Below, one piece after another: positions 35,520 through 59,664 of a stretch of 64,000 nt of DNA; the first letter of the stretch is position 1; the number at the start of each line of letters is the position of its first letter. The position numbers and the translations under genes are program-made. The notes under the pieces were generated by a model that saw only the letters and a program-made list of their open reading frames with translations, was not told the DNA's origin and ran no database searches. This stretch comes from an uncultured Verrucomicrobiae bacterium (lineage in GTDB: Bacteria; Verrucomicrobiota; Verrucomicrobiia; Limisphaerales; UBA11358). The DNA lies in contig CAVTVI010000006.1 in the NCBI GenBank assembly GCA_963738175.1, forward strand, positions 263,493 to 327,492, written 5' to 3'.

Positions 35520-36065
35520 TCAATTTTCCTGCGGAATCAATCCCACCCGCAGGGCCAGCCGCACCAGTCCCGGAACGTCGTGAATTTTCAGGCAGTTCAT
35601 CAACTTTATACGATGGTATTCGACGGTCTTGGGACTGACCTTCAAAATCTCCGCAATCTTCTTCGTGTTCTGGCCTTCGGCAATCAGCAGGAGAATCTCG
35701 CGCTGCCGGATCGTCAACGGTTCGAGCGGGCTTTGCTCGCCGGCGATTCCATCCATGGTGATGTTTTTAAGGAATTGCGTGGAGATCTTCCCTTGCGAAT
35801 CAGCTTCCTTGCGGCTCGCACTTTTCAGAGCCGTCTCGGCCTGCTCGGTGCGCGTCTCGGCCTGTTCGGTTCGGATTTCGGCTTGTTCTGTCCGCGTCTT
35901 CGCCAGTTCCGTCCGGGTTTCAGCCTGTTCCGTGCGCGTCTCCGCTGATTCCGCGCGGGTCTTGGCCTGCTCGGTGCGCGTTTCAGCCTTCTCCGTCCGG
36001 GCTTCGGCCTGTTCAATCCTCGTTTTGCTGCCGGTCACGCCCGCAGGTTGATTCTTTTTTTTCAT
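35520..36065 (-). CDS. LuxR-family HTH regulator without a receiver domain, with an N-terminal heptad-repeat region
   Basis: C-terminal TIRQREILLLIAEGQNTKKIAEILKVSPKTVEYHRIKLMNCL. N-terminal region has about nine (A/T)ETRTEQ heptads. ATG at 36065. Confidence 0.8.
   Translation of the reverse strand: MKKKNQPAGVTGSKTRIEQAEARTEKAETRTEQAKTRAESAETRTEQAETRTELAKTRTEQAEIRTEQAETRTEQAETALKSASRKEADSQGKISTQFLKNITMDGIAGEQSPLEPLTIRQREILLLIAEGQNTKKIAEILKVSPKTVEYHRIKLMNCLKIHDVPGLVRLALRVGLIPQEN
35832..36020. repeat. 9 x 21-nt in-frame tandem repeat inside the LuxR-solo gene
   Basis: Units on the + strand: cgtctcggcctgctcggtgcg / cgtctcggcctgttcggttcg / ... / ggcttcggcctgttcaatcct. Confidence 0.9.
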
Positions 36066-36102
36066 TTCGACTCCATCACAATAAACAAAGAAATTTTGCG
36101 AG

Positions 36103-36125
36103 CGCCATGGGGTGTTTTCCCCATC
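36103..36125 (-). promoter_or_regulatory. stress-block palindromic box, copy 4
   Basis: GATGGGGAAAACACCCCATGGCG, 37 nt upstream of the LuxR-solo ATG 36065. Confidence 0.6.
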
Positions 36126-36178
36126 CTCAAACCAGACAGGTGAATCCAGTCCCGCTCGCGCAGGCGGCACGACCATGA

Positions 36179-36200
36179 GGTAGGGTTATACCCCATGGTA
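36179..36200 (+). promoter_or_regulatory. stress-block palindromic box, copy 5
   Basis: GGTAGGGTTATACCCCATGGTA on the + strand, 150 nt upstream of ATG 36351. Divergent partner of copy 4. Confidence 0.55.
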
Positions 36201-36350
36201 AATGACCGATTTGAACATATAATTTCAGTTGTAGTGCTGAAAGTCATGCAGGAAGATGAAATTGATTTGAGCACCGCGATCGGCATCAACGTACCGCCAC
36301 TCTAAAAAAACCTGTGGACAAAAATGGTCGGAGCCGATTAAAGAACCATC

Positions 36351-36956
36351 ATGAAATTCATCCTTCCATTACTCACGGCGGTGACATTGGCCGCCTGCCT
36401 TCTGACCGGCTGTCAATCGCCCAAGGCCATGTCTCCGCGCGAAAGCATTGCGACGCAATCCACGCGAAACAATGGCTACAGCCTGCTCCATCAACTTCTC
36501 GACGAGCAAAAAAATGTCGGCCTGCTGCGATTCATCAGACCCGAGAACTCCGATGTCAAAGAACTGGTGAAGCGGATTGCCACCGCTTCCGGAACCGGGG
36601 CAAAATTATTGGAGGCATTTGCCAAGGACGATCCTTCAATCAATCTGGACGACATCCGGCTGCCGCCGGGCGAAGTGGCCACGCGCGATGCGATTGCAGC
36701 CACCAAAAAAAAGGAATTGTTGAGCCAGAGCGGCGACACCTTTGAACTGACCCTGCTTTTGACCCAGACCGAGGCGTTGAGCTATGCCTGGCATCTGGCG
36801 GAAGTCACCGCCGAAAACGAGCCGCAACCCGAACGCGCCCGTGCGCTGGCCGGCATCAGTGACGACATGAAAAACCTCTATCACGAAGTGTTCGTCTTGT
36901 TGCTGTCGAAAACAGAATCATCGACCACGAACTCGATCACGGCTCAACCGCAATAG
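36351..36956 (+). CDS. hypothetical lipoprotein
   Basis: MKFILPLLTAVTLAACLLTGC lipobox; helical 201-aa body; no family recognised. Confidence 0.6.
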   Translation: MKFILPLLTAVTLAACLLTGCQSPKAMSPRESIATQSTRNNGYSLLHQLLDEQKNVGLLRFIRPENSDVKELVKRIATASGTGAKLLEAFAKDDPSINLDDIRLPPGEVATRDAIAATKKKELLSQSGDTFELTLLLTQTEALSYAWHLAEVTAENEPQPERARALAGISDDMKNLYHEVFVLLLSKTESSTTNSITAQPQ

Positions 36957-36984
36957 CGCGGGGATTTGTCCAAGTCTGAAGCCT

Positions 36985-37003
36985 GATGGGTAGAATACCC
37001 CAT
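36985..37003 (+). promoter_or_regulatory. degenerate/orphan copy of the palindromic box
   Basis: GATGGGTAGAATACCCCAT on the + strand, with no + strand ORF downstream. Followed by a 9-bp-stem hairpin AACACCGCA..TGCGGTGTT. Confidence 0.3.
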
Positions 37004-37107
37004 AACACCGCAGGAACTTTTCGATTACGATACAATGCGGTGTTGATATTGGTTCTATTTATCAGTTTGTTTTTACTGGGCTTGTTCACAATCAGACCCT
37101 AGCTCAC

Positions 37108-38289
37108 CTATTTTTTCATCGTGCGGAATTGTCGCAGGGCGACGAAGGGATCAATCCGCGCCAACAAAAAATGCGCCCAGTGATTTTTCCAGCGCTGCCA
37201 GAAAGTCTCGGTTTTCCGCCATTGAGGAAGTTCGATTTTCCGGGAAAGTTTCAGCGCGCGCTCAAAAATTTCCCGCGCCTCGGCGGCGGCCGTTTTGTCG
37301 TCAAATCGCAACATGAGTTCGTAATTCAAATTGAGGCTGCGGATGTCGAGATTGGAAGAGCCGACATAAGCGATGCCGTCGCAGAGAACCAGTTTGGCGT
37401 GCAAAATCTGCGGCTGATATTCGTAAATCTCCACGCCCGCTTTCAACAGGCGATGATACAAACTTCTGGCCGCCAGTTGCGAGACCGGCACGTCGGATTT
37501 GCCGGCCAGCAGCAGTTGCACGCGTCCGCCGCGCCGCGCCACGCGCTTCAAATCCCGGCGCAGCCGCCGGGTCGGCAGAAAATACGCGCTCACAATCCGC
37601 ACGTCATGGGCTTTGGCCAGATCGTGATAGAGCGCAGTTTGAAACGGGCTGGCACCGCGTCCGGGACGGATTGGCAAAAATTCCCCCGCCGTTCTCTTTT
37701 GAGATTTGCGTTTGTGTTTGAAGAGGCGCAAACGCAGCAGCGGTTTTTTGTGAAAATCCGACAGCGCAAATAATTCTTCAAATGAATCCGCCAGTTCTCC
37801 GGCCAGCGTTGCATTTTGAATCCGGACGCCGAGGTCGCACCAGCCGCGCGTCACGCCGTCGCCGTCGTATTCATCGGCCACATTAAATCCGCCGATGAAA
37901 ATGACGGACTCGTCGCAGACCAGAAGTTTGCGATGGTCGCGCACGCCGAAACGCCAGAGGTGAAGCGGATTGAAACGGCGCACCTGCGCGCCGGCGGCGA
38001 TGAGCGGGCTGAAAAAATTATCCGGCAAAAACCATGAACCGGCGGCATCCACCAGCACGCGCACGCGCACGCCGCGCCGGGTCGCCGCCAGCAGCGCTTC
38101 CAGAAACCGCCGCGCCAACTGGCCGTCGGAAAACGTGTAAGTTTCCAGTTGGATGGATTTCTGCGCCGCGTGGATCGCCGCCAGCATGGCCGGAAAAATT
38201 TCCCGGCCCATGGAAAGCCATTGCAGCGCGGGGGTGTTTGAAGCGGATATGTTTTTGATTTGATTCACCAAGCCGGAAAAGGAGCCCAC
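37108..38289 (-). CDS. phospholipase D / cardiolipin synthase family protein (two HKD motifs)
   Basis: HRKLLVCDESVIFIGGFN and LHAKLVLCDGIAYVGSSNLDIRS. Confidence 0.85.
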   Translation of the reverse strand: MGSFSGLVNQIKNISASNTPALQWLSMGREIFPAMLAAIHAAQKSIQLETYTFSDGQLARRFLEALLAATRRGVRVRVLVDAAGSWFLPDNFFSPLIAAGAQVRRFNPLHLWRFGVRDHRKLLVCDESVIFIGGFNVADEYDGDGVTRGWCDLGVRIQNATLAGELADSFEELFALSDFHKKPLLRLRLFKHKRKSQKRTAGEFLPIRPGRGASPFQTALYHDLAKAHDVRIVSAYFLPTRRLRRDLKRVARRGGRVQLLLAGKSDVPVSQLAARSLYHRLLKAGVEIYEYQPQILHAKLVLCDGIAYVGSSNLDIRSLNLNYELMLRFDDKTAAAEAREIFERALKLSRKIELPQWRKTETFWQRWKNHWAHFLLARIDPFVALRQFRTMKK

Positions 38290-38326
38290 CTGTTTGCCAC
38301 ATCAATGTTTGTTAACGACATACATT

Positions 38327-42198: not shown

Positions 42199-42666
42199 TC
42201 ACATCCGCAAACCATTGGATGACGGCTGGCTTTGCCGGTTTGGCGGCGGCGCAGATTGTTCGAGGCAACCGTCGCTCACGCGCAGAACATTGCCCACCGT
42301 GATCAATAACTCCTCGATGCTATAAGGTTTGAGCAGCGTGGCCTCGATTTGCAGCCACGGATGCCGGCTCAATTCATCTTCGGGAAAGGTTCCGGTGGCC
42401 ATGATGACCGGCAACGCCATGCGGGCGGCATGAACTTTCTTGACCAACTCAACACCTGTCATCCTCGGCATATCGTTGTCGGTGATCAGCAGATGATAAT
42501 TTTTAAGTTGCAACACTTCCCAAGCGTCAGCCCCGTCGTTGGCGGTATCAACCTCGTAGCCGGATTCAACCAGCACCGTGCTGTTGAGTTGGAGAATTAA
42601 AGGCTCGTCATCCGCCAGAAGAATGCGCTGGGGGGTCGTTTTGCACTTAAGTGGCGCGCTGGGCAA
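42199..42666 (-). CDS. stand-alone response-regulator receiver protein
   Basis: ILLADDEPLILQ..HLLITDNDMPRMTG..PVIMATG; 155 aa, no output domain. Confidence 0.85.
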   Translation of the reverse strand: MPSAPLKCKTTPQRILLADDEPLILQLNSTVLVESGYEVDTANDGADAWEVLQLKNYHLLITDNDMPRMTGVELVKKVHAARMALPVIMATGTFPEDELSRHPWLQIEATLLKPYSIEELLITVGNVLRVSDGCLEQSAPPPNRQSQPSSNGLRM

Positions 42667-42733
42667 CGTATTTCTCCGTCATGTAAAACTACTCTTTCTT
42701 TCATTTCGACATCATAGGCTGAAACCTTTGCGG

Positions 42734-42756
42734 CTGCCATGGGGTGTTTTACCCAT
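42734..42756 (-). promoter_or_regulatory. stress-block palindromic box, copy 9
   Basis: ATGGGTAAAACACCCCATGGCAG, 67 nt upstream of ATG 42666. Confidence 0.6.
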
Positions 42757-42927
42757 GCCGGGTTGGATGATTCATTCCGCCAACGCCTTCGCACCGCCGA
42801 AATCCGCGCGCTGGCAGCGTTCCTCAAATCAACACGGATTGACAGAGTTTCGCCCATCACACGTTAAGGATTGACTATTTAGCTCGGATTGTATATGAGT
42901 CGGACTTAACTCATTTTAGAAGTCAGC

Positions 42928-43753: not shown

Positions 43754-45808
43754 ATGAAATCCCGGCAAACAGCTGATTGGGTGGGACACAGACAAGTTCT
43801 GCTTCATCCCGGACAACTGTTGCTGTCAATTTGCGTGGCGATTTGCTCGACCGTGTTTTCTTCATCACTCATGGCCGGTTCACCGAACGGCCAGGTGGCA
43901 AGCTGGGGTTCGCGGGTGATGCCAAACGTGCCACCGGGAACGGTCTTCACCAGTATCGCCGCCGGATTCGATCACAGTCTGGCCCTGAAAAATGACGGAA
44001 CGGTCATGGCTTGGGGAAACAACTTCGACGGTCAGGCAACGGCGCCCGCCGGGTTGAGCAACGTCGTGGCCATTGCGGCTGGGGGCGGCGGGTATAGTCT
44101 CGCGCTGAAGAACGACGGAACGGTTGTCAGTTGGGGTTCCACGAATGTCATGAATCCGCATGAAACGCCCCCGGCATTGCCTCCGATTATGGCCATCGCG
44201 GCGGGGGAATTTTATAGCCTGGCACTTGCGACCAACGGGAATGTGGTCGCGTGGGGTGGAGGCCTCTATGGCCAGTCTATGCCGGGCGGTTTGACCAACG
44301 TCTTGGCCATCGCAGCGGGCAGTTATCACAGTCTGGCGCTCAAAAGCGATGGCACCGTGGTTGCCTGGGGTGCCGGCACGCCTGCGACCAATTCATTTCC
44401 CAACTACGGCCAGAACCTCGTGCCCGCCGGGTTAAGCAACGTGATCGCCATCGCGGCGGGAGCGAACCACAGCATGGCCCTCAAACAGGATGGAACGGTC
44501 ATCGCCTGGGGATGCAATTATGACGGTCAAACAAATGTGCCCGCCGGGCTGAACAATGTCGTGGCCATCGCCGCCGGTGGCAGCGAGGAAACCGGCCACA
44601 GCCTGGCGCTCAAGAGCGATGGCACCGTGGTCGCCTGGGGAAACAACAATTACGGCCAGACGAATGTGCCGGCCGGCTTGAGCAACATCGTGGCCATTGC
44701 CGCCGGCTCTTATTACAATCTGGCACTCACCGGCGATGGCTCAATCGTCGCGTGGGGCGGTGCCAATGCCGATTACGCAACCGTGCCGTCCAAATTGAAT
44801 AACGTGGCCGCCATGAGCGCCGCGTGGGGGCACAACCTCGGCCTTGAAAGCGACGGCTCGGTGGTGCTCTGGGATTACAACTATCAAACCAATCCGCCAG
44901 CCGGGTTGAATAACATGATCGCGGTTGCGGCGGGAGCTAATTTCGATCTGGCGCTCCGGGGCGACGGCTCCGTGCTTGCGTGGGGAGATGATTCCTACGG
45001 GCAAACCGACGTCCCCGCCGGGTTGAGCAATGCGGTGGCGATTGCGGCAGGCGATCGCCACAGCCTAGCCCTGTGCAATGATGGGACGGTGGTCGCGTGG
45101 GGAGCCGGACTGACCAACGGCGGCCCGTTCCCGCACTTCGGCCAGTCACTGGTTCCGGCTGGATTAAGCAATGTCGTGGCGATTGACGCGGGCGAGGTTC
45201 ACAGCTTGGCCCTGTGCAATGATGGCACCGTGGTTGCCTGGGGGGACAATTCCGCCGGGCAAACCAATGTTCCGGTCGGTTTGAGCAGCGTGGTCGCCAT
45301 CGCGGCGGGTTCGTTTCACAATCTTGCCCTTTTGAGCAACAGCACGGTGGTTGCCTGGGGAAATAATTACTTTGGCCAGACGAATGTGCCGGTGGGATTG
45401 AGTAATGTCCTCGCGGTTGCGGCAGACAACAGCCACAGTCTGGCGCTGAAAAACGACGGCACGGTCGTTGTCTGGGGCGACAACACTTACGGCCAGACCA
45501 ATGTGCCGTCCGGGTTGACAAACGTTGTGACCATTGCAGCGCACACGGGCCGCGGCATGGCCATCACTGCCGCCTTGAAAATCCTGTCCATCGAATCTTC
45601 CGGCAATAGCGCGCTCCTGCGTTTCCATGGGTTTGCGGGACGCCAATATACTATGGAATACTCGCCCGACCTCGCTCCGGGTGATTGGTTTGAACTGCCG
45701 GGTGCCGGCGTTGAAGGCAGCGGGTTGGATGCGGCAGTAATGGATACCAACGCCATGTCGGCAGCGGCCAGCAGATTCTATCGCGTAAAGGAATCCCAGT
45801 CCCCCTGA
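43754..45808 (+). CDS. secreted RCC1-repeat (beta-propeller) protein
   Basis: About 13 tandem ~50-aa repeats of V(V/I)AIAAG..HSLAL..DGTVVAWG.N..GQTNVPAGLSN; signal peptide present. Confidence 0.85.
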   Translation: MKSRQTADWVGHRQVLLHPGQLLLSICVAICSTVFSSSLMAGSPNGQVASWGSRVMPNVPPGTVFTSIAAGFDHSLALKNDGTVMAWGNNFDGQATAPAGLSNVVAIAAGGGGYSLALKNDGTVVSWGSTNVMNPHETPPALPPIMAIAAGEFYSLALATNGNVVAWGGGLYGQSMPGGLTNVLAIAAGSYHSLALKSDGTVVAWGAGTPATNSFPNYGQNLVPAGLSNVIAIAAGANHSMALKQDGTVIAWGCNYDGQTNVPAGLNNVVAIAAGGSEETGHSLALKSDGTVVAWGNNNYGQTNVPAGLSNIVAIAAGSYYNLALTGDGSIVAWGGANADYATVPSKLNNVAAMSAAWGHNLGLESDGSVVLWDYNYQTNPPAGLNNMIAVAAGANFDLALRGDGSVLAWGDDSYGQTDVPAGLSNAVAIAAGDRHSLALCNDGTVVAWGAGLTNGGPFPHFGQSLVPAGLSNVVAIDAGEVHSLALCNDGTVVAWGDNSAGQTNVPVGLSSVVAIAAGSFHNLALLSNSTVVAWGNNYFGQTNVPVGLSNVLAVAADNSHSLALKNDGTVVVWGDNTYGQTNVPSGLTNVVTIAAHTGRGMAITAALKILSIESSGNSALLRFHGFAGRQYTMEYSPDLAPGDWFELPGAGVEGSGLDAAVMDTNAMSAAASRFYRVKESQSP

Positions 45809-46457: not shown

Positions 46458-46655
46458 TTATTGCCAGAAGGAAATCACCGTTGAAGTCAACTCCTTGCCG
46501 GAAGGGAAAACTTTCCATTTGCCGTCATAATCAGCCACGGCCATGCACCGGAAATCTTCACATTGAACCCAATACCGTTGGCCGATTACCAGCCGTGGAT
46601 CGCCCACGAAGCGAGCATCTGATTTTTTGACGCTTTTGATCACCCTCTGCCACAC
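46458..46655 (-). CDS. hypothetical 65-aa protein
   Basis: GTG-started ORF directly behind box copy 11. Protein-like composition (..RYWVQCEDFRCMAVADYDGKWKVFPSGKEL..). No family recognised. Confidence 0.35.
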   Translation of the reverse strand: MWQRVIKSVKKSDARFVGDPRLVIGQRYWVQCEDFRCMAVADYDGKWKVFPSGKELTSTVISFWQ

Positions 46656-46676
46656 TAACCTTTTTCATCACCGCCT

Positions 46677-46698
46677 CGCCATGGGGTGTTCACCCTAT
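46677..46698 (-). promoter_or_regulatory. stress-block palindromic box, copy 11
   Basis: ATAGGGTGAACACCCCATGGCG, 21 nt upstream of GTG 46655. Confidence 0.55.
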
Positions 46699-46766
46699 AC
46701 GTTTCGGACTGATGCGCTACCTGACCTTCTCGTTCCGGCTGTTTGTTTCTGCTTCCGGCGTCGAAA

Positions 46767-47465: not shown

Positions 47466-48605
47466 TTACCGGATTTTTTTGCGGGGGGGGGGTAATTTGC
47501 CAAATGGAATTTCCACCTGGACGGCGGTGCCTTTGCCGGGCGCGGATTCGACGCAAAAAGTGCCGCCGACCATTTCGACGCGCTCCCTCATGCCGAGCAG
47601 TCCGAGACGGTTGCCGGTATTGGCGTGCAAGGCGCGCTCGACACTGAAAGATTTGCCGTCGTCCTTGATTTCCATGCGGGCGACGGCCTGAAATTTGCGG
47701 ATGTCCACTTCCACGCGGCGCGCGTGGGCGTGGCGGGCCACGTTGGTGAGCGCTTCCTGCGCCACGCGAAAGAGCACCGTCCGTTTGGCGATGTCCAATT
47801 GCTCGATGCCCGCAAACGCCTTCAAGTGAACCTGGAGGCGCGTCCGCTTGGAAAAGAGTTTCACGAACGAATGCAGCGCGGGGATCAAGCCGAGGTCGTC
47901 CAGCACCGCCGGGCGCAATTCGCGGGCGAACTGATGCACGATGTCCACGGATTTTTCCACGAGCCGCTGCGTGCTGGCGATGTTGCGGTCGAGATGCTTG
48001 GTGTTGAGCGCGGCCTCTTTTTTCAAGGCCGCGAGCCGGACGTTGATGCCGGTCAAAGTCTGGGCGATGACATCATGCAGTTCGCGGCTGATGCGTTTCC
48101 GCTCGTCCTCCTGCGCGGAAAGAATCTGGCGGGACAATTGCCGCAACTGCTCCTGCAGGCGTTCCGAATCCGCCAGCAACTTGCTGTAATGGTGCTCGCT
48201 TTTTTTAAGCGCCGTCTCCACCGCCTTGCGCTGGGCGATTTCCTGCTGCAACTCCACGTTCGAGGCGGCCAGTTCCACGGTGCGCTGGCTCAACATCTCG
48301 ACGATCTGGTTCAGGTGGACGGCGGCCTCGTGTGAGCCGCGATGGATTTTCTCGATGGGAGTGATCGCCTCGGTGAAAAAAATCCCCGCCTGCCTGATGA
48401 GCGCGGTGCGTTTGCCGGCCGCGCGACCCGGCAACACTTTGGTCACGAGGATTTGCTCATGGAGCTTGGCCATGTCCAGCGTCTGCAAGCCGACGTCCAG
48501 CGCCTGCTGGCCCATGCCGCGCGCCCGTTGCAGACGTGCGCGGGAGCGTTGCTTGAGATAAGCCTGCAGTTCCGCCTGATAACGTTTTGAAAATTTTTGT
48601 TTCAT
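47466..48605 (-). CDS. cytoplasmic sensor histidine kinase (HisKA_3 + HATPase_c)
   Basis: H-box ISRELHDVIAQTL; IKDDGKSF; LGLLGMRERVEMVGG. No TM segment. Confidence 0.9.
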   Translation of the reverse strand: MKQKFSKRYQAELQAYLKQRSRARLQRARGMGQQALDVGLQTLDMAKLHEQILVTKVLPGRAAGKRTALIRQAGIFFTEAITPIEKIHRGSHEAAVHLNQIVEMLSQRTVELAASNVELQQEIAQRKAVETALKKSEHHYSKLLADSERLQEQLRQLSRQILSAQEDERKRISRELHDVIAQTLTGINVRLAALKKEAALNTKHLDRNIASTQRLVEKSVDIVHQFARELRPAVLDDLGLIPALHSFVKLFSKRTRLQVHLKAFAGIEQLDIAKRTVLFRVAQEALTNVARHAHARRVEVDIRKFQAVARMEIKDDGKSFSVERALHANTGNRLGLLGMRERVEMVGGTFCVESAPGKGTAVQVEIPFGKLPPPRKKIR

Positions 48606-49300
48606 AACCCGGCGAATTCCCGCGCGACCCGCCGGACGGATTTGGCCGATTTTAACACCAGCCGCTGCGTGCTGGCGATTTCATTTTTGAGACCCCTGGT
48701 GTTGCGCCGCGCCTCCTGTTTCAATGAAAGCAGCCGGACATTGATGCCCAGCAAAGTCTGGGCGATTTCATCATGCAGTTCGCGGCTGATGTTCTTGCGG
48801 TCGTCTTCCTGCGCCGCCATCACCCGGTGCGTCAGCAGCCGCAGCCGCTTTTGCAACCGGAGCGATTCCTCCAGGCATTTGTTGTGGTGCTTCCCGGTTT
48901 TCTCGAAAGCGTCCTCCATGGCCTTGCGCCGGGTGATGCCGCGTTGCAACTGGCGGTTGGACACGGCCAGTTCTTCCGTGCGCTGGCCCAGCGTTTCGTT
49001 CAACCGGCTCAAGTCAATTTTGCCTTGCCGCGCGGCGCGATGTGTTTCCGCGATCGGAATGTTGGCCTCGGTGAAAAAAATCCCGGCCAGCTTGGTGAAG
49101 CCGTTTTTTATTTTGGATAATTCCAAGGTGGCGAGCGCGCGCTCGTGAATCCGCGCCAGTTCCAGCGTGCCCAGACCGAGGGCGACCGCCTCGCGTCCCA
49201 GTCCCAACGCCGGCTGCAGGCTTGCCTGCGGGCCTTGCTTCAGGTGTTTTCGCAACACAGCCACATACCGTTCCGACAAGCCGATTAGATTTTGCTTCAT
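48602..49300 (-). CDS. histidine-kinase paralog with sensor + DHp (H-box) but no ATPase domain
   Basis: Collinear with the N-terminal 230 aa of the 47466..48605 kinase (GIFFTEA, H-box ISRELHDEIAQTL). Ends at ..VAREFAGL-stop, where the kinase continues ARELRPAVLDDLGL. ATGA overlap with the kinase start. Confidence 0.8.
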   Translation of the reverse strand: MKQNLIGLSERYVAVLRKHLKQGPQASLQPALGLGREAVALGLGTLELARIHERALATLELSKIKNGFTKLAGIFFTEANIPIAETHRAARQGKIDLSRLNETLGQRTEELAVSNRQLQRGITRRKAMEDAFEKTGKHHNKCLEESLRLQKRLRLLTHRVMAAQEDDRKNISRELHDEIAQTLLGINVRLLSLKQEARRNTRGLKNEIASTQRLVLKSAKSVRRVAREFAGL

Positions 49301-49388
49301 GTTGTCAAGCCGGGTTCTGCGGAGTTGGGGCTTTATCTTTCAATTTTCAATCACAACTCATGACATTGTCCGTCAATTTCATTGGTTC

Positions 49389-49409
49389 GGATATGGGGTG
49401 AAACCCGAC
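49389..49409 (-). promoter_or_regulatory. stress-block palindromic box, copy 12
   Basis: GTCGGGTTTCACCCCATATCC, 88 nt upstream of ATG 49300. A second palindrome CCGGTGAACACCGG lies at 49431..49444. Confidence 0.5.
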
Positions 49410-49525
49410 CCCGATCAAAAATTTGAAAGCCCGGTGAACACCGGAGGAAAAGTGTTCGCCGGGCGATGCCGGCCTAAACAAAATTTTGTTTCGTCCAGGC
49501 TGTGCAAATGTTTCAAGTCCGCCCA

Positions 49526-51223: not shown

Positions 51224-54001
51224 TTAAACCGGTTTCGCCGCGCCGGGTTGATCAAGCACTTCGCGCACTTTGTTCGCCAGCGCGGACGGCGTGAACGGTT
51301 TCTGCAGGAGCGCCACGCCCTTGTCCAACACGCCTTGGTGGACGATGGCGTTCTCGGTGTAGGCCGAGGTGAAAAGAATCTTGGTCTGCGGCCGCAACGC
51401 CCGCAAGCGGTCGGCCAGTTCCTTGCCGCTCATGTGTGGCATGACGACATCGGTGAACAACAAATCAATATAGCCGGTGTCACGCTGTTGTTTCAGGTTC
51501 AAGGCCTCGACGCCATTGGCCGCCGTCAAAACAGTGTAGCCCAGACGCCTTAACAATGTCGCCGCCATCTCCCGCAAGGCAGGATCGTCCTCGACCAGCA
51601 GAATGGTTTCCGTCCCGTGCGGCAAATCCGGCGAGCCCAAACGCAGAATGGGAATCTTCGCCTCCGATTCCATTTGCGGCAGATAAATTTTGAAAGTCGT
51701 GCCGCGCCCCGGTTCGCTATAAATGCTGATATGACCTCCACTTTGTTTGATGATGCCGTAACAGGTGGACAAGCCCAGGCCGGTTCCCTGTCCAACGTCT
51801 TTGGTGGAAAAAAACGGCTCGAACACGCGCGCCTTCACTTCGTCGCTCATGCCCGTGCCCGTGTCCGTGATCGCCAGCATCACATAATCGCCCGGTTTCA
51901 ATTCGGGATAACGGCCTACGCTCTCTTCGTCGAACGAGACGTTCGCCGTTTCCAGAATGAGTTTGCCGCCGTTGGGCATGGCATCGCGCGCGTTGATCGC
52001 CATGTTTATGATGACCTGTTCAATCTGTCCGGCGTCCACCTTCACCATATGCAGGTCACTGGCGGGGACAATCTGTGCATTCACATCACCACCCATGAGA
52101 TGGCGAAGCATGCCTTCCATGCCTGCGATGACCTGGTTGAGATCGAGGGCTTCCGGTTGAAGAAATTGCTTGCGGCCATACGCCAGCAGTTGCCGGGTCA
52201 GTGCGGCGGCCCGGCTGGCGGCCCGGTTGATTTCGTTCGCGTTTTTGACCAGCGGACTTCCGGCGGGGAGATCGCCGAGCAGCAATTCACTCTGGCCGAT
52301 GATGGCCGTCAGGATGCTGTTGAACTCGTGCGCAAAACCGCCCGCCAGTTTGCCGACGGTCTCCATTTTTTGGGATTGCAACAACTGGGCTTCGATCCGT
52401 TTGCGCTCGGTGATGTCGCGACCCATGCCAACGAGTCCGATGATCGTGCCAGTCGCGTCACGCAAGGGAATTTTTGAGCTAAGGGACCAGTGGGTTTCAC
52501 CGGCTGCGGTGACGATTTTTTCCTCATGGTTGATGAGGGGCTGGCCGGTTTGAATCACAGCCTGGTCATCGGCAAAATATCCCGCAGCCAGTTCTTCAGG
52601 ATAAATTTCAAAATCGCTTTTGCCGATGGCTTCGGCTTCCGTCTGACAGCCCATGTTTTTCAATTCGGCCAGATTGGCGAGCGTTTTACGACCGGCCAGG
52701 TCTTTGATGTAAATGGTATCCGGTGAATTATCAATCATGGTGCGCAACAGATTGCGTTCTTGCGCCAGCGCAGCGTCAGCCTGCCTGTGTTCGGTGATGT
52801 CAAAAAATATTCCCTGCGTGCCTATGATTTTTCCATCCGAGCCAAATACCGGCGATTTCACAACTTGCCAATACTGTATTTTCCCATCCACACTGGGATA
52901 CTGTTCCTCCACATCGATTCGCTTGCCTGTTTCCATTATCCATTGATGATTAATCGCGCCCTGAATCGCCAACTGGATCTCTTTCGCCGCTTCCGGATGG
53001 TTTGCGAATTCGCTGGCTGCAAGTTCCCGAGACGTTTTGCCCAGGATTTGTTCCGGCGTCATGCCTTTGATCCGGCAATACCAGGAATTCACAAAAACAA
53101 AGCGGCCTTCCGCATCCTTGCGGAAAACGCCGGCGGGCAATTGATCAACCAGCGAATGGTAAAGCGCCTGCGAGTCGGCCAGTTCCCCGGTTCGTTCCTC
53201 AACCTGCGCCAAAGTATGCGACAATTGCGTGCGGCTGCGGCGGGCGGCCAGCAAAACGAACATGACCGCGCCAAAGGCGACGGCGATGTTCGCGATGCCG
53301 AACAGGATGGCGTTATTCTTGATCCAGCCAAAACTGGCAAACGTCGCACTGGCCTGCCCGCCGGAAAAATGATAGCCATAGTCGCTAAAGGCATTTGCGG
53401 CGGCGGTCACACGTTCGGTCAGCGGGGGAATGTTCTGATCCATCGCCTTCATGGCGGCGGCAAAATCCGAGTCTTCCAAGTTCTGGACTTTGCGGAATTC
53501 GGTGTCCAGATCGTTAAAGGCATTTTCCAGATTGGATGCCAGGTTCCGGCCCTCGCCTTCGGGCAGAAGCGTCTTGATGTTTTCCAATTCCGCGCGCGTT
53601 TGAACCGCCGTGTCTTGCACCGCCTTCGCCTTGCCGGCTTTTTCCCCTTGCTGCGCGAAAAGATATTCGTAGGAGTCGAGCCGGTAGATGGCCAGATGCT
53701 CCTGCAACGACGCCAACTCGTTGAGCGCGGGCAGACCCTGATGTTCCAGCGATGCGGCGGTTTTCATCCCGGTTTTGCACACCTGCCAGAGCGTGAACAT
53801 TTGAACAACGGCGAAAACGAAAATCAAAAAAACGACGAGCAGAATGTGGCGGAACGTCGCCCAGAGCGGACGGATTTCCTTTTCGTAGGCCAAAGCGCCA
53901 CGCGCTTCGCCCGCCTCATCCGTTTGCCGGTGCAATCCCTTCGCGGGGCTCGCGGTTTTTTCACGGCTTCCGGTTTGGTTGTTTTTTTGGGTCTTATCCA
54001 T
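51224..54001 (-). CDS. membrane hybrid sensor histidine kinase (helical sensor, PAS x2-3, HisKA, HATPase, REC)
   Basis: TM helices flank a ~170-aa helical domain. H-box FAHEFNSILTAI; DTGTGM; GTGLGLS. C-terminal REC ILLVEDDPALREM..LLFTDVVMPHMSG. Confidence 0.9.
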   Translation of the reverse strand: MDKTQKNNQTGSREKTASPAKGLHRQTDEAGEARGALAYEKEIRPLWATFRHILLVVFLIFVFAVVQMFTLWQVCKTGMKTAASLEHQGLPALNELASLQEHLAIYRLDSYEYLFAQQGEKAGKAKAVQDTAVQTRAELENIKTLLPEGEGRNLASNLENAFNDLDTEFRKVQNLEDSDFAAAMKAMDQNIPPLTERVTAAANAFSDYGYHFSGGQASATFASFGWIKNNAILFGIANIAVAFGAVMFVLLAARRSRTQLSHTLAQVEERTGELADSQALYHSLVDQLPAGVFRKDAEGRFVFVNSWYCRIKGMTPEQILGKTSRELAASEFANHPEAAKEIQLAIQGAINHQWIMETGKRIDVEEQYPSVDGKIQYWQVVKSPVFGSDGKIIGTQGIFFDITEHRQADAALAQERNLLRTMIDNSPDTIYIKDLAGRKTLANLAELKNMGCQTEAEAIGKSDFEIYPEELAAGYFADDQAVIQTGQPLINHEEKIVTAAGETHWSLSSKIPLRDATGTIIGLVGMGRDITERKRIEAQLLQSQKMETVGKLAGGFAHEFNSILTAIIGQSELLLGDLPAGSPLVKNANEINRAASRAAALTRQLLAYGRKQFLQPEALDLNQVIAGMEGMLRHLMGGDVNAQIVPASDLHMVKVDAGQIEQVIINMAINARDAMPNGGKLILETANVSFDEESVGRYPELKPGDYVMLAITDTGTGMSDEVKARVFEPFFSTKDVGQGTGLGLSTCYGIIKQSGGHISIYSEPGRGTTFKIYLPQMESEAKIPILRLGSPDLPHGTETILLVEDDPALREMAATLLRRLGYTVLTAANGVEALNLKQQRDTGYIDLLFTDVVMPHMSGKELADRLRALRPQTKILFTSAYTENAIVHQGVLDKGVALLQKPFTPSALANKVREVLDQPGAAKPV

Positions 54002-54055
54002 GATTCCTATCGTCCAGGAGCGGTTTGTTATTTTTGTCTGTGTTTGCAGCCGCAG

Positions 54056-54481
54056 TTATTTGATTTCGATTTTTTTGACGCCTTTTAATTTGGTGTCGTC
54101 GGGCACGAGGGCGATGGCGCCTTTCGTCGCGGCGACCAGCGCGACCAGTGCGGCGGCGTCATCAGCTTTCTTCGGCTCCGAACCGCGACCGGAGAAAGTG
54201 AGGCGCTGCCAGAAGGTTTTGAACTGGCTGCCATCCATGCCGCTGGCCTGTTGCAGCGCGGCATCCGTCTTGTCCGGCAGCACGACGATGATGATCGCCT
54301 GTCCGTCTTCCCAATACTTGGTCTTGGCGGTGTAAATGTCCTTGAGTTCATCCGCCGACAGGCTGTCGGCGGCGACGCTGGAATTGGCGATCACCACCGC
54401 GCCATCGAGCGCCAGCGCGCTAAACGTGCCGGCCACCAGCAAGACTACGAGCAATCCAATTTTAAGCAAAAATAATTTCAT
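54056..54481 (-). CDS. small periplasmic PBP-like (PstS-family-like) protein
   Basis: Signal peptide; VVIANSSVAADSLSADELKDIYTAKTKYWEDG...FWQRLTFSG; 141 aa. Confidence 0.5.
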   Translation of the reverse strand: MKLFLLKIGLLVVLLVAGTFSALALDGAVVIANSSVAADSLSADELKDIYTAKTKYWEDGQAIIIVVLPDKTDAALQQASGMDGSQFKTFWQRLTFSGRGSEPKKADDAAALVALVAATKGAIALVPDDTKLKGVKKIEIK

Positions 54482-54517
54482 GTTCAGCTTCTTTGATCGG
54501 TTTGGCTTCTGATTGGA

Positions 54518-55732
54518 TTAGAAACTGAATGTGGTTTTGAGCGCGAGCATGAACCAGCCGTCGTCGTTTCTCACCGGGTTGTTGGCATTGTCATCCAACA
54601 GCCCGGTGCCACGGATGTAATGTCCCTCCACCTTGAAAACCCACCACGGTTCCGGGTCGAAGCGGAATGAAAGCGCCAGGTCTTTTTGGGAAGCATCCGA
54701 CGGAGCGGCAAGTTTCCCGCCATTATAATATTCCGTATAGTAGCCGCCGACTACCAGCCACTTGTTAAAACGATAGTCCGCGCTGCCATACCAGGCCTCG
54801 CTGGCGCTAAATGTATGAGTGGCGCCGATGTCCTGGCTGACCTGGATATTGTAATACTCGGCTTGGAACGTCCAATCTTTCCACAAGTATTCGGCGGAGT
54901 ATTGTTGCAATATGACGGGACCCTCGGCGCGCAATGAAATTGAGGAGGGGTTTGGTGGCGGAGCTCCCGTAGGCACTTTAAAATTGTAATCAAAATTGAA
55001 CAAGTATCCAAGGGATGCGCCGAAGCGCAGGCCGTTCACCGGGGTGTTCCACCATAATTGGGAGCCGGCGGTTGATATCTGATCGAAGGAAGTTATGTTC
55101 CCGCCTGGCGGCAGCGAATTGTTGATTACATTCGCCACGCCACTGTCCGGCGCGATGTTGATGAATCCCGCATAAGCTTCGTAAGAAAGACCACCCGCCT
55201 TGCTCAACGGAATGTTTCCGAAAAGAGCGCCCCCATCCAGCGTGCAGGAAAGATTTCGAAAACGCGCGTCATAAATTCCCTGCGGCAACAGCACAAACGT
55301 GCGCGCCAGATCCACGTCTTGAATATCATTGTAAATGCCGCCCGGCTTGCGAATCCGTCCCGCGCGCAGGCCAATGTAGTCGTTAAAGGTATATTCAGCG
55401 GAAGCATAATCGAGAAAGGGCTGGTATTTGCCGGCATCACCCACGTCAAACAGAAATCCTTGCGCCGCGATGTGCGTGCGCGGAAACGGATTGAGCGAAG
55501 TATTTAAGCCGACTTCCATGTATTCGAATGAACCGTTCCTGGTGTTATCGGCGAGGTAATTATATTTGGTCGTGTCCAGAAATCCCTGGCTGACGAAGCC
55601 GTGGAAATCAAATGGCGGCATATTGGTGCCAAGGAGATTCAATTCCGCAGCTTCAAGGTGGCAGGCCGTCAAAGCAACCGGTAATGCAAGCAGCAACCTC
55701 CCGGTCAACTGCCTGATAATGGTTTTGTTCAT
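54518..55732 (-). CDS. outer-membrane porin-like beta-barrel protein
   Basis: Signal peptide MNKTIIRQLTGRLLLALPVALTA; alternating beta-strand pattern; C-terminal ..LKTTFSF. Confidence 0.6.
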   Translation of the reverse strand: MNKTIIRQLTGRLLLALPVALTACHLEAAELNLLGTNMPPFDFHGFVSQGFLDTTKYNYLADNTRNGSFEYMEVGLNTSLNPFPRTHIAAQGFLFDVGDAGKYQPFLDYASAEYTFNDYIGLRAGRIRKPGGIYNDIQDVDLARTFVLLPQGIYDARFRNLSCTLDGGALFGNIPLSKAGGLSYEAYAGFINIAPDSGVANVINNSLPPGGNITSFDQISTAGSQLWWNTPVNGLRFGASLGYLFNFDYNFKVPTGAPPPNPSSISLRAEGPVILQQYSAEYLWKDWTFQAEYYNIQVSQDIGATHTFSASEAWYGSADYRFNKWLVVGGYYTEYYNGGKLAAPSDASQKDLALSFRFDPEPWWVFKVEGHYIRGTGLLDDNANNPVRNDDGWFMLALKTTFSF

Positions 55733-55815
55733 ATTATGACTGTTAGATGACTGGCTGGATTGATTCGCGACACTGGAGTCAATTTTGCCAATGAATGGAT
55801 TTGCTCTCACAAGCT

Positions 55816-57813
55816 TCATGCAATGGCAGGGGGACTTTGACGGACCGTCACTCCTTCCTTCCGAAGAAGGGCGGTGTCAGTTTTATTATCCAGCATGGCG
55901 CGCACTTTGCGGGCGAGGGTGGCGGGCGTGTAGGGTTTGGACAGGAATTCAACCCCGGCTTCAAAGACGCCATGCTGGGCGATGGCCTCGTCGGTGTAGC
56001 CGGAAGTGAACAGGATTTTGAGATCAGGATAAGTTGCCTTCAGCCACACGGCCATCACTTTGCCGCTCATCACCGGCATGATGACATCGGTGACGACCAG
56101 GCGGATCGGCGTTCCTTTATGTTCGCGCGCCACTTGCAACGCCTCCTGCCCGTTGTTCGCGCGCAGCACATTGTAACCTTGGCCTTCCAAAACGCTGCAG
56201 GCCAGATGACGCACGGACGGCTCATCTTCAACGAGCAACACGGTTTCCGTCCCGCGCGGAATCGGGCCCGTTGCGGCGATTTTGGTTGAAATGTCAATGG
56301 GCTGTTCAACGCGCGGGAAATAAATCTTGAAGACCGTGCCCTTGCCCAGCTCGCTTTGCACTTCAATATGGCCGCCGCATTGCTGGACGATGGTCTGGCA
56401 GGTCGCCAGTCCCAGACCCGTGCCCTTGCCCACTGGCTTGGTCGTGAAAAACGGCTCAAACAACCGCCTTTTCACTTCCTCGCGCATGCCGGTTCCCGTG
56501 TCACTGACACTCAACATCACATAATCGCCGGGAATTAAGCCTGCGCGCGTGTGCGCGTCGTTTTCATCGAACGTGACGTTGCCGGTGGTGATGGTGAGCT
56601 TGCCGCCGTTGGGCATGGCGTCGCGGGCGTTGACGATCAGATTCATTATCACCTGTCCGATCTGGCCGGCGTCAGCCTTGATGCGTCCGGTTTCCTTTCC
56701 GGGGACAATCGTCATCTCGATGTGCTCATCAATGAGTCGGCGCAACATTTTGTCCAGGTCAACCACCACGTCTTTGAGGTCAAGCACGACGGTTTGCACG
56801 GTTTGCCTGCGGCTGAAGACGAGCAGTTGCCGCGTCAGCGCGGCGGCGCGATCCGATGCGTGCCGGATCTCCTCAATGTATTTTCGCAGCGCACTTTTCG
56901 GGTCAAGGTCGGCCATGATCAAATCGGTGTAACCGATGATGACGGCGAGAATGTTGTTGAAGTCATGCGCCACGCCGCTGGCGAGATGGCCGACCACCTC
57001 CATTTTTTGCGCCTCGATGAACTGCGTCTCCAGCTTCTTGCGTTCGGTAATATCCTGGGCCGTCCCGAACAGGCCCACGACCTTGCCCTCGGCATCCTCC
57101 ATCGTGTATCCAATCTCCCGGATCGTCTTCAAGACGCCAGCCCGCATTTGGATGCGGTATTCGAGCTCGAAGGATGTCCCGCCCGCTCTGGCTTCGGCAT
57201 TCGTCCGCAGAACCTCCGGCCGGTCGTCGGGAAGCACGCGATTCAAAAAAGTCTCATATCTGCCATCGAACAGCGCCTTTTCGATTTCAAAAATCCGGCA
57301 AAGCTCATCTGACCATCGCAGCTTTTTGCTGGCTAGGTTATACCGCCAGCTTCCCATCTTGGCGACACGCTGGGCCTCCGCTAAATCAGCTTCATTCTCT
57401 CGCAACTTCACATACGTCTGTTTGCGTTCATCACGCTCCACCACTTCCCGCATGGCGCGGCGCACGGCGGGAACAAGACGGGCGAGACGTTCCTTCAGGA
57501 CATAATCCGTCGCGCCGCTCTTGAGCGAATCAATGGCCCGTTCCTCGCCCAGCGACCCGGAAACCAGAATGACCGGCAGGTCGGGCCAACTGGCGCGCAC
57601 GATTTCCACGGCGGACAACCCGTCAAACGCAGGCAGCGAGAAGTCCGAAAGAATCAGGTCAATGCCGCCGCGTTCAAGCGCCGCCACAAACTCATCGCGG
57701 TTTTGCACGCAGGTAACCGCGCAAGGGATGTCCCCCGCTTCCAGCGTGGATTGAATGAGCGCGGCATCGTGGGGATCATCCTCCAGATGCAGGATGCGGA
57801 GCGGGGATTTCAT
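55816..57813 (-). CDS. hybrid histidine kinase (REC-PAS-HisKA-HATPase-REC)
   Basis: N-terminal REC ILHLEDDPHDAALI..LILSDFSLPAFDG; H-box VAHDFNNILAVI; VSDTGTGM; GTGLGLA; C-terminal REC VLLVEDEPSVRHL..LVVTDVIMPVMSG. Confidence 0.9.
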   Translation of the reverse strand: MKSPLRILHLEDDPHDAALIQSTLEAGDIPCAVTCVQNRDEFVAALERGGIDLILSDFSLPAFDGLSAVEIVRASWPDLPVILVSGSLGEERAIDSLKSGATDYVLKERLARLVPAVRRAMREVVERDERKQTYVKLRENEADLAEAQRVAKMGSWRYNLASKKLRWSDELCRIFEIEKALFDGRYETFLNRVLPDDRPEVLRTNAEARAGGTSFELEYRIQMRAGVLKTIREIGYTMEDAEGKVVGLFGTAQDITERKKLETQFIEAQKMEVVGHLASGVAHDFNNILAVIIGYTDLIMADLDPKSALRKYIEEIRHASDRAAALTRQLLVFSRRQTVQTVVLDLKDVVVDLDKMLRRLIDEHIEMTIVPGKETGRIKADAGQIGQVIMNLIVNARDAMPNGGKLTITTGNVTFDENDAHTRAGLIPGDYVMLSVSDTGTGMREEVKRRLFEPFFTTKPVGKGTGLGLATCQTIVQQCGGHIEVQSELGKGTVFKIYFPRVEQPIDISTKIAATGPIPRGTETVLLVEDEPSVRHLACSVLEGQGYNVLRANNGQEALQVAREHKGTPIRLVVTDVIMPVMSGKVMAVWLKATYPDLKILFTSGYTDEAIAQHGVFEAGVEFLSKPYTPATLARKVRAMLDNKTDTALLRKEGVTVRQSPPAIA

Positions 57814-58327
57814 GGTTGACCTCCTTCTTTCCGGGAGAAAGGACTTCACCGTTTTGGATCGAAGTTTCATCTCTCACTATATTTGGCGGCGGTTCATTGA
57901 CCGCCGCCCAAAAGACACCGACTTGTTTGACCGCCTTCATAAACTCCGAAAAATCCACGGGCTTTACCACATAGGCGTTGACGCCATGCTTGTAAAACTC
58001 GGCCAAATCGGGCGCTTCACGCGAAGAAGTGAGCACCACGACCGGAATCAACTTCAAATGTTCGTCCGCCTTCATGGTTTTCAGAACTTCCAATCCGCTG
58101 ACCTTGGGCATTTTGTTGTCGAGCAAGACGACCACGGGATTGCCGGGCGGGCGGCTTTTGAATTTCCCCCGGTGATAAAGATAATCCAGCGCCTCCGCGC
58201 CGTCGTGAACGACTTTGACCTTGTTGGCCAGATGTTGCTCCTCCAGCGCGGTCAACGTCAGTTCCACATCCCGCAGATCATCCTCGACCAGCAGGATGTT
58301 TTTGATGCTTCTGCTTTCAGTGTTCAT
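57776..58327 (-). CDS. single-domain response regulator (CheY/Rcp1-like)
   Basis: ILLVEDDLRDVELT..VVLLDNKMPKVSG..VVVLTSS..AYVVKPVDF. Confidence 0.9.
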   Translation of the reverse strand: MNTESRSIKNILLVEDDLRDVELTLTALEEQHLANKVKVVHDGAEALDYLYHRGKFKSRPPGNPVVVLLDNKMPKVSGLEVLKTMKADEHLKLIPVVVLTSSREAPDLAEFYKHGVNAYVVKPVDFSEFMKAVKQVGVFWAAVNEPPPNIVRDETSIQNGEVLSPGKKEVNHEIPAPHPASGG

Positions 58328-59537
58328 TGATGACTCCGTTTTGTTGCTTTGGGATTGAAAAATAAAAAGTCGCGCCGCCGTCCATCACGCCTTCCGCCCA
58401 CACCCGGCCGCCGTGCCGGTGAATGATGCGCTGGACGTTCGCCAGCCCGATGCCCGTGCCCTCGAACTCGGCCTGACTGTGCAGGCGCTGAAACACGCCG
58501 AACAGTTTGTGGGCATATTGCGGATCGAAACCCGCGCCGTTGTCGCGGATGAAAACCACCGTCTCACCATCGCCGCCCGGAACACAGCCAATCTCGATTT
58601 TGGCCTCGGCGCGGCCGCCGGTGAACTTCACCGCATTGGAAATCAGATTGACCAGCACCAGGCGCAACAGGGCGCGGTCGGCCTGAACGGCCGGCAGCGG
58701 AAGGATTTTGCACGCAATCTTCCGCTCTTTTGTCTCGGCCTGAAAATCACCCAAGGTTTCGCGGACCAGTTCTTCGAGATTGATTTCCGTCTTTTTCAAT
58801 TCGGCACGTCCTATGCGCGAGAACGCCAGCAGGTCGTCAATCAAATCACCCATGCGCTTGGTTGACTGGGAAATAACGGCCAGATGCCGGAGGCTTTTTT
58901 CGGACAGCGACGGCCCAGCGTCGTTTTGCAGCAGATTCACGAAGCCCAGAACATGGCGCAGCGGCGCGCGCAAATCGTGCGAGACGGAATAACTGAACGC
59001 TTCCAGCTCCGCATTGGCGGCTTCCAGTTGCGCCGTGCGTTCAGTGACACGCTGCTCCAGTTCCGCGTTGAGACGTCGTATTTCACCTTCCGCCCGTTTG
59101 TGCTCGGTTATGTCGCGGATGTTGCATTGAATCACTTTTTTGTCACCGGCTTCATACACATTGCTGACAAACTCGACGGCACTCTTGCGACCGTCCCTCG
59201 TTTCCAGCGGCAGATGCTCATAGCGGACATAACCGTTCTTTTGTAATCGCTCAAGCATGACCTTGTTCGACTCGATGTCCTTGAACGGACTCAACTCGCC
59301 GACAGTTAGGCCGACCATTTCGTTGCGGGAAAAACCCAAGAGGTTAACCAGGAAAGGATTCACATCAGTGATGCGGCCCGTATCCACATTCAGAATCAGG
59401 ATGCCGTCCTTTGCCGCTTCAAACAGCCGGCGATAACTGATTTCAGAGGCGCGAAGCGCCTGCTCTGTCCGCGTCTCGTCTGGCACAGTGTGGATTTCGC
59501 TGTGAGCAACATTCCGGTTTTGATGATCACTGTTCAT
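58317..59537 (-). CDS. cytoplasmic PAS histidine kinase
   Basis: PAS (YRRLFEAAKDGILILN); H-box VSHDLRAPLRHV; IRDNGAGF; GTGIGLA. Confidence 0.9.
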   Translation of the reverse strand: MNSDHQNRNVAHSEIHTVPDETRTEQALRASEISYRRLFEAAKDGILILNVDTGRITDVNPFLVNLLGFSRNEMVGLTVGELSPFKDIESNKVMLERLQKNGYVRYEHLPLETRDGRKSAVEFVSNVYEAGDKKVIQCNIRDITEHKRAEGEIRRLNAELEQRVTERTAQLEAANAELEAFSYSVSHDLRAPLRHVLGFVNLLQNDAGPSLSEKSLRHLAVISQSTKRMGDLIDDLLAFSRIGRAELKKTEINLEELVRETLGDFQAETKERKIACKILPLPAVQADRALLRLVLVNLISNAVKFTGGRAEAKIEIGCVPGGDGETVVFIRDNGAGFDPQYAHKLFGVFQRLHSQAEFEGTGIGLANVQRIIHRHGGRVWAEGVMDGGATFYFSIPKQQNGVINEH

Positions 59538-59640
59538 GATCCTGTCACCGTTAATTTCATTTCTCCCCGCAAAGTTTGGCTTACGCCATCAAGAGATTTC
59601 TCGGGCAATGGTTTAATGATGAACAGAAAAGGGACACAAT

Positions 59641-59664
59641 CGCCATGGGGTGTTCACCCCATGG
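59641..59664 (-). promoter_or_regulatory. stress-block palindromic box, copy 15 (perfect 10-bp arms)
   Basis: CCATGGGGTG-AA-CACCCCATGG followed by CG, 103 nt upstream of ATG 59537. Heads the six-gene signalling operon. Confidence 0.6.

Follow-up and report, generated by a model that had tools for sequence, protein, structure and literature searches.

The 64,000-nucleotide (nt) stretch of verrucomicrobial DNA analysed here (the window; positions 263,493 to 327,492 of contig CAVTVI010000006.1, assembly GCA_963738175.1) carries a gene island in which a short palindromic sequence, hereafter the box, stands in front of gene after gene, including every unit that encodes a regulator. As judged from sequence, the best reading of the system is an autoregulated two-component regulon of the NarL type, a known kind of system, although the regulon itself has apparently not been described before. 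The NarL-type response regulator of the island, RR1 (46767..47450, minus strand; REC plus a GerE helix-turn-helix (HTH) by Pfam), is probably the protein that binds the box and would thereby activate both its own operon and the remaining signalling genes. The host is a metagenome-assembled genome of 2.77 Mb from the Limisphaerales (subdivision 3) lineage of the Verrucomicrobiota.

The box and its promoter

The box was recovered from the window by repeat finding and pattern searches, which gave the consensus (G)CCATGGGGTGTTCACCCCAT. Allowing up to three mismatches, ATGGGGTGTTCACCCCAT had 12 matches in the window versus 0.02 expected from shuffled sequence, and a looser scan yielded 16 oriented copies between 26.7 and 59.7 kb. 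These fall into two forms with eight copies each: a long form (L), which reads ATGGGGTG-AA-CACCCCAT in the direction of the gene (its promoter-proximal part also written CACCCCATGG), and a short form (S), TAGGGTTACACCCCAT, which is 1 nt shorter (also written GGTAGGGTTA-CACCCCATGG). The half-sites are accordingly spaced as GGGT-N4-ACCC in L and GGGT-N3-ACCC in S. Many copies are near-perfect palindromes of 18–22 bp, and conservation is far stronger in the gene-proximal half, CACCCCAT(G/A)G, than in the distal one. Every copy has ACCCCAT(G/A)G on the side of the gene, and each of two divergent gene pairs has two opposed boxes. Within the window, the L form heads the gene for a LuxR-type HTH protein, a stand-alone receiver gene and an operon that begins with a PAS kinase, while S-form boxes precede the RR1 operon and most of the envelope and stress genes. 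Genome-wide counts were made with the strict pattern GGGTN{3,4}ACCCCAT; the exact 12-mer ACACCCCATGGC was rejected as a counter of the regulon, being too strict and missing box-rich genomes such as G011.

The position of the box relative to a putative -10 element was examined at 80 RR1 loci from other species. A TAnnnT hexamer begins 21–24 nt past ACCCCAT in 28 of the 48 S-form sites, against a background of 0–2 sites at other offsets; the same peak was seen for L-form sites and for the genome of the window. At the four regulator units described below, the -10-like hexamer begins 22–23 nt past ACCCCAT. Reckoned from the -10 hexamer alone, the box would extend from about -53 to -35 with its centre near -44. 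It would thus form the upstream, untranscribed half of the promoter, in the geometry of a class II activator site. An earlier note on this DNA had argued that the palindromic core suits a dimeric HTH protein of the LuxR/NarL class, and this agrees with a box that is palindromic, apparently untranscribed and set at a fixed class II distance from the -10 element.

Other readings of the element were considered and rejected. With a -10-like hexamer on its downstream side, the box should be outside the mRNA of the gene it serves, which rules out an RNA hairpin or other element of the 5' untranslated region. A sigma-54 promoter, hinted at by TGGC within ...CCATGGC..., was ruled out by the wrong GG-to-GC spacing. 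A promoter reading away from the minus-strand genes (TTGC-N17-CCCYAY) was ruled out because divergent pairs have their own opposed boxes and the TAnnnT enrichment lies on the other side.

RR1 as the probable binder

RR1 has the domain structure expected of a phosphorylation-controlled DNA-binding protein, with a receiver at residues 8–119 (Pfam Response_reg, 4.6e-27) and an HTH at residues 157–212 (Pfam GerE, 6e-18). The candidate phospho-acceptor, Asp58 in a DIAMP motif, is conserved in all orthologues, and the closest solved structures, all matched over the full length, include VraR, NarL, DesR and DevR. The recognition helix, KTVEKHREHLM, is near-invariant in 17 orthologues, which fits the conservation of the motif it is proposed to read. 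The gene adjoins that of a kinase with HisKA_3 and HATPase_c domains (47466..48605), and a NarL-type regulator beside a HisKA_3 kinase gene is a standard pairing.

The abundance of the box tracks the presence of RR1. Among 41 related genomes, those with an RR1 orthologue (at least 72% identity) had a median of 15 boxes versus 2 in those without (Mann-Whitney P = 1.3e-6, with related genomes treated as independent). In a sample of 200 genomes from across the phylum, an RR1 homologue (E ≤ 1e-60) was found in 9 of the 12 box-rich genomes, i.e. those with seven or more boxes, versus 11 of the 188 others (Fisher P = 2.7e-8, uncorrected for phylogeny). Boxes directly adjoin the RR1 gene in five genomes (G105, G213, G057, G237 and G195), and the 80 RR1 loci of other species together hold 136 strict boxes in 468 kb versus 0.45 expected. 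The analysis encountered 580 RR1-related loci. At these loci the boxes cluster at about 2 kb upstream of RR1, where the operon promoter lies, and at 30–450 nt past its stop codon.

The operon promoter is also where the box is best conserved. A correctly oriented box precedes the RR1 operon in 33 of 65 loci from other species of the phylum with enough upstream sequence, usually some 1.9–2.5 kb ahead of RR1, that is, in front of the gene for a kinase paralogue with a DHp domain only. Within the order, 15 sites in relatives from five families were compared, and 13 have the box in place amid diverged flanks; four other families are represented among them (G035, G028, G027). The DHp-only gene is kept upstream of the kinase gene in relatives, and the order of kinase and RR1 is conserved too. 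The form of the box at this promoter varies, being S in G000, G018, G023, G013, G027 and G009 and L in G011, G035, G028, G001 and at two sites of G006. Conservation, here and at the other units described below, is stronger evidence than the count of box-fronted regulator units in the window.

Two observations concern the ends of this operon. The -10 of the RR1-operon promoter reads GAYNNT, with G for T at position 1 and an offset of 22, in at least 12 genomes; such a conserved, sub-optimal -10 fits strict dependence on an activator. Past the RR1 stop codon, a box was found within 0–450 nt in 32 of 74 loci of other species, with a receiver-like open reading frame (ORF) after RR1 in seven loci. 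In the window, the corresponding box (46679..46700) is followed only by ORFs of 65 and 37 codons (46458..46700).

Several points weigh against RR1 as the binder. G016 encodes an intact RR1 (81% identical, with the same recognition helix) yet has 3 strict boxes, and G004 has 1; a degenerate ATACGGAGAACACCTTAT stands at the RR1-operon promoters of both (two sites in G004, one in G016). Eleven genomes of the phylum sample have an RR1 homologue (56–64% identity) and no box enrichment, and three box-rich genomes (G234, G120 and G183) have no RR1 homologue at E ≤ 1e-60. A single protein would need to accept both N4 and N3 spacings between half-sites, something a rigid dimer does not usually do. The -10 hexamers are poor at two of the four regulator promoters (GACAAT and CATCAT), and the co-occurrence statistics count related genomes as independent. 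The lack of covariation between recognition helix and box in G004 and G016, where the boxes are degenerate and the helix unchanged, speaks neither for nor against RR1. Both RR1 copies of G004 look frameshifted (loci L028, L047, L021, L026 and L002) while its boxes are degenerate or absent, a state that could reflect decay of the regulon or errors of long-read assembly.

The earlier note had put forward both HTH proteins of the block as candidate binders and targets. For the NarL-type regulator this has been strengthened, as box abundance tracks RR1, but the LuxR-type protein is not an equally good candidate (see below). No box was found near the other two GerE-type proteins of the genome (contigs C18 and C5).

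Four box-fronted regulator units

All four regulator units lie on the minus strand, and their boxes share one orientation relative to the gene served. The RR1 operon is headed by an S-form box, GGGGTCGGGTTTCACCCCATAT (49391..49412), and a weak -10-like GACAAT (49365..49370; offset 22). Its first gene (48602..49300, ATG at 49300) encodes the DHp-only paralogue, with RsbU_N and HisKA_3 domains and no ATPase domain. It is followed by the cytoplasmic histidine kinase (47466..48605), in which RsbU_N precedes the HisKA_3 and HATPase_c domains, and by RR1. The stand-alone receiver (42199..42666; 155 aa; Pfam Response_reg, 1.6e-21) has a TTG start with GGAG 7 nt upstream; its L-form box, GCATGGGTAAAACACCCCATGG (42737..42758), has two mismatches in the distal half, and its -10-like TATGAT (42711..42716) lies 22 nt past ACCCCAT.

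The PAS-kinase operon (51224..59537, ATG at 59537) is preceded by a perfect 22-bp palindrome, CCATGGGGTGAACACCCCATGG (59643..59664), and a weak -10-like CATCAT (59616..59621; offset 23). According to Pfam, its six genes encode a PAS kinase, a receiver (57776..58327), a hybrid kinase, a 433-aa protein with no Pfam match, a PBP-like protein and a hybrid kinase with 4HB and PAS domains. Gaps or overlaps between its ORFs are at most 54 nt, and the box scans of the window found no copy inside it.

The fourth unit is the gene for the LuxR/GerE-type HTH protein (35520..36065; Pfam GerE, 4.3e-15), of 181 aa and with no receiver or ligand domain. Its L-form box, GGATGGGGAAAACACCCCATGG (36105..36126), was located by pattern search, and a -10-like TATTGT (36078..36083) follows 23 nt past ACCCCAT. 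The ORF as listed starts at 36176, which would place the box in coding sequence; the likely start is the in-frame ATG at 36065, which has GGAG 7 nt upstream and gives a protein that agrees in length with its orthologues. The box then lies 41 nt before the ATG.

Retention of the box in relatives differs among these units. In seven genomes the box lies 66–114 nt before the homologue of the receiver gene, and in a further three the distance is about 300 nt. As for the PAS-kinase operon, its four closest orthologues (G012, G013, G011 and G010) all have a box in front, and a receiver gene often comes first in them. Of the three orthologues of the LuxR-type gene, that of G003 alone has a canonical box (S form, same distance); G004 has a diverged palindrome in its place and G011 has none.

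Pfam agreed with the domain and gene calls of the earlier note for these units, and scans of the island's other genes revealed no further regulator, so that the note's statement that the box precedes every regulator unit of the block stands, at four out of four. By our own count, however, about 15 of about 18 transcription units at 26.4–59.7 kb are box-fronted, and the chance of four out of four given this base rate is 0.45. The statement is therefore true but not significant in itself: box-fronting is the rule for the whole island and is not special to regulators. The wiring had also been called autoregulatory. This description would suit the NarL operon, which carries a box that is conserved across the phylum, but the receiver and the PAS-kinase operon encode no DNA-binding domain, and a box before them would mean feedback on signalling components rather than strict autoregulation.

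The LuxR-type protein and alternative binders

The LuxR-type protein was previously labelled a LuxR solo, which is a misnomer: in the Pfam search only GerE and generic HTH models matched, and the autoinducer-binding domain (Autoind_bind) was absent. Its N-terminus consists instead of about nine (A/K)ETRTEQ heptads (36042 down to 35818 in the window). Relatives have a second NarL-type regulator, a paralogue whose C-terminal half shares 59–66% identity with residues 72–180 of the LuxR-type protein, and the latter looks like a NarL-type derivative that has lost its receiver. About 12 copies of the heptad are found at the N-terminus of a PAS histidine kinase encoded on contig C5 (~89,750–91,190), outside the window, and one at the N-terminus of the island's own PAS kinase (59458..59499). 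As the heptads are found in both the HTH protein and PAS kinases, the array is a module common to them.

That this protein is the principal box binder and regulates itself, with the NarL-type regulator as only one of its targets, seems highly improbable. It does have a GerE HTH, a box in front of its start and an orthologue in G003 that keeps the box, and its HTH is 52% identical to that of RR1, with the recognition-helix pattern KTVE.HR..LM in common. The two helices differ, however, at two positions (Y for K and I for E) that we take, by analogy with the NarL and DosR structures, usually to face the bases. Its distribution is also too narrow: a full-length orthologue was found in only 4 of the 41 related genomes (G000, G003, G004 and G011; 72–75% identity in the latter three), and ten genomes with 13–65 boxes are without the protein. 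Four of the box-rich genomes (G013, G023, G024 and G018) are also without its receiver-containing paralogue, and three of these (G013, G023 and G018) hold both box forms. Conversely, the G011 protein has no box in front of it and the G004 protein is found in a genome with almost no boxes. The LuxR-type protein thus appears to be a target of the regulon and possibly a second binder only. A more elaborate role, which we regard as improbable, would make it a phosphorylation-independent second binder induced by RR1. The two tiers would then form a positive-feedback latch, turning a transient signal into a self-sustaining stress or dormancy state, and the ETRTEQ array may tether the protein to kinases by helix-helix association, replacing phosphotransfer.

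The two half-site spacings could also be explained by two binders, one HTH protein reading L and the other S, with two interlocked sub-regulons as the result; the other protein would be the LuxR-type protein or, in other genomes, a second RR1 paralogue. The equal numbers of L and S copies in the window, their partition between most of the signalling units on the one hand and the NarL operon with most envelope and stress genes on the other, and the rarity with which a rigid dimer tolerates a 1-bp change of spacing would all suit this explanation, as would G013 and G023, which are rich in both forms and carry two RR1-like paralogues. We nevertheless consider it distinctly unlikely, since orthologous promoters do not keep to one form (L precedes the LuxR-type gene in G000 but S does in G003, and the NarL operon has S or L depending on the genome), which argues for a single binder with a flexible distal contact. 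G007 and G009, moreover, have both forms with a single RR1 match, though both assemblies are incomplete. Alternatively, the box might be read by a factor encoded outside the island, either an alternative sigma factor with ACCCCATGG as its -35-type element or an unlinked transcription factor, in which case the regulators would be ordinary members of the regulon. Such a factor would account for the strict orientation and fixed distance to the -10, for the much better conservation of the promoter-proximal half, for the exceptions to RR1 co-occurrence, and for a regulon content that resembles the sigma-controlled general stress regulons of other phyla. It is unlikely, however, given that near-perfect palindromes imply a dimer, that the -10 is of the TAnnnT housekeeping type, and that the distance of 22–23 nt from ACCCCAT to the -10 puts the conserved half upstream of the normal position of a -35 hexamer. 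The tight linkage of box and RR1 operon throughout the phylum would, in addition, be a coincidence.

Regulon content and proposed mechanism

The regulon comprises about 15 units in the island and about a dozen elsewhere in the genome, or some 30 promoters. Box-fronted genes of the island, beyond the regulators, encode a DUF2934 protein, a ferritin/Dps-like protein, a lipoprotein, a PRC-barrel protein, an alcohol dehydrogenase, a CBM48 protein (with genes for a holin-X-like protein and for glycosyltransferase/GH130 proteins), phospholipase D, a mini-ORF, a PEP-CTERM protein, CsbD, a triple-BON (BON/OsmY) protein and an entericidin-like lipoprotein. Elsewhere, the box precedes genes for a YflT-type stress protein, a phosphoketolase, a nitroreductase and a PocR/AraC regulator. 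This is the profile of a general-stress or quiescence regulon.

The observed sites, with their orientation, spacing and conservation and their co-occurrence and linkage with RR1, suggest how the system may work; binding, activation, the direction of phosphotransfer and the roles of the accessory proteins are predicted from sequence. Stress signals would activate the RsbU_N-HisKA_3 kinase, which would phosphorylate the adjacent RR1 at Asp58. Phosphorylated RR1 would then dimerise on the box, the operator half of an activator-dependent promoter, where it would overlap the -35 region and recruit the housekeeping RNA polymerase by contact. By inducing its own operon RR1 would generate positive feedback. 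The co-induced DHp-only paralogue, as a possible brake, and the lone receiver, as a possible phosphate sink or connector, are candidates for negative feedback, through heterodimers with the kinase or by draining phosphate. The PAS/hybrid-kinase operon might widen or amplify the signal inputs. A second regulatory tier would consist of the LuxR-type and PocR/AraC proteins, of which the LuxR-type protein may bind related sites without phosphorylation.

Comparison with known systems

Positive autoregulation is familiar from two-component systems such as PhoPQ and VraSR, and the principle is not unusual. As in those systems, the kinase/regulator operon is preceded by the regulator's own (here putative) site; the present system differs in its extras, namely a co-induced DHp-only paralogue, a receiver and a second kinase operon. 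The geometry of the promoter likewise recalls class II activator sites, such as those for FNR and CRP at -41.5 and the lux box, which is bound by LuxR and has its centre at -42.5, in that the palindrome would overlap the -35 region and keeps a fixed distance to an often imperfect -10 of housekeeping type. In the present case, the centre lies near -44, as estimated from the -10 hexamer alone, and the proposed activator is a phosphorylation-controlled NarL-type protein and not a ligand-binding one.

Among characterized systems, the best reading of the sequence data is a DosR/DevR-like regulon under RR1. DevR is a NarL-family regulator whose palindrome half reads G4G5G6A7C8T9; the Rv3134c-devRS operon is positively autoregulated, and DevR promoters need at least two boxes (PMC3177182). 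Both systems combine a NarL-family regulator with HisKA_3-type kinases, a site of the regulator (putative in the case of RR1) in the promoter of its own operon, and a regulon of stress or quiescence proteins and further regulators. By inspection, the palindrome that RR1 is proposed to bind also resembles that of DevR in its length of about 20 bp and in the GGG at positions 4–6 of each half, the present 20-mer consisting of C-A-T-G-G-G-G-T-G-A followed by A-C-A-C-C-C-C-A-T-G. The differences are such that the system is not orthologous to that of DevR. The relationship between the two regulators is distant (E = 1.8e-25 for RR1 versus 3c3w), DevR being the sixth-best structural match of RR1, behind VraR, NarL and DesR, and the kinase sensor is a helical domain of the RsbU_N type without GAF, unlike the GAF/haem sensors of DevS and DosT. 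The present regulon also includes a DHp-only paralogue, a receiver-less LuxR-type protein and a PAS/hybrid-kinase operon, single boxes prevail, there are two half-site spacings, and the phylum is the Verrucomicrobiota. With regard to LuxR solos, which in one account are defined by an N-terminal autoinducer-binding domain (PMC4338825), the LuxR-type protein resembles them in its C-terminal LuxR/GerE HTH and the lack of an adjoining partner gene; it differs in having the heptad array instead of that domain.

A search of the literature library found nothing on the box motif, on a verrucomicrobial stress regulon or on the combination of RsbU_N with HisKA_3. Verrucomicrobiota are abundant in soils, bogs and lakes, and to our knowledge almost nothing is known of their gene regulation. 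The locus supplies a defined promoter motif, a named candidate regulator and kinase, and a general-stress regulon of about 30 promoters conserved across several orders, so that the stress or quiescence response of a largely uncultured phylum becomes directly testable with purified proteins and synthetic DNA. A regulator, a truncated kinase paralogue, a receiver and extra kinases under one box make a textbook design for a switch-like two-component system, and we regard the result as a useful annotation rather than a conceptual surprise.

Further observations

The box-fronted PocR/AraC-type regulator (291 aa; contig C5, ~92,440–93,390) is a fifth regulator of the regulon, outside the island; next to its box, on the side away from the gene, the sequence is similar to the promoter of the LuxR-type gene (..CCCCATCCtcaaac.agacagg..). 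A correctly oriented box is missing from only a few units of the island, one of which (43754..45808) encodes a 684-aa protein with about 12 RCC1 repeats (DNA repeats of 117–141 nt) behind a prepilin-type N-methyl protein. A weak box with three mismatches (36984..37005) lies in the convergent gap between a plus-strand gene (36351..36956) and the minus-strand phospholipase D gene (37108..38289); it has TACGAT at the usual offset and points into the antisense strand of the phospholipase D gene, followed only by an ORF of 38 codons. Finally, a cluster of perfect palindromes, ATGGGGTCTGACCCCAT, with a 3-nt centre was found in G234 of the phylum sample (contig C4, 46–56 kb), and may represent a variant system with a diverged regulator.

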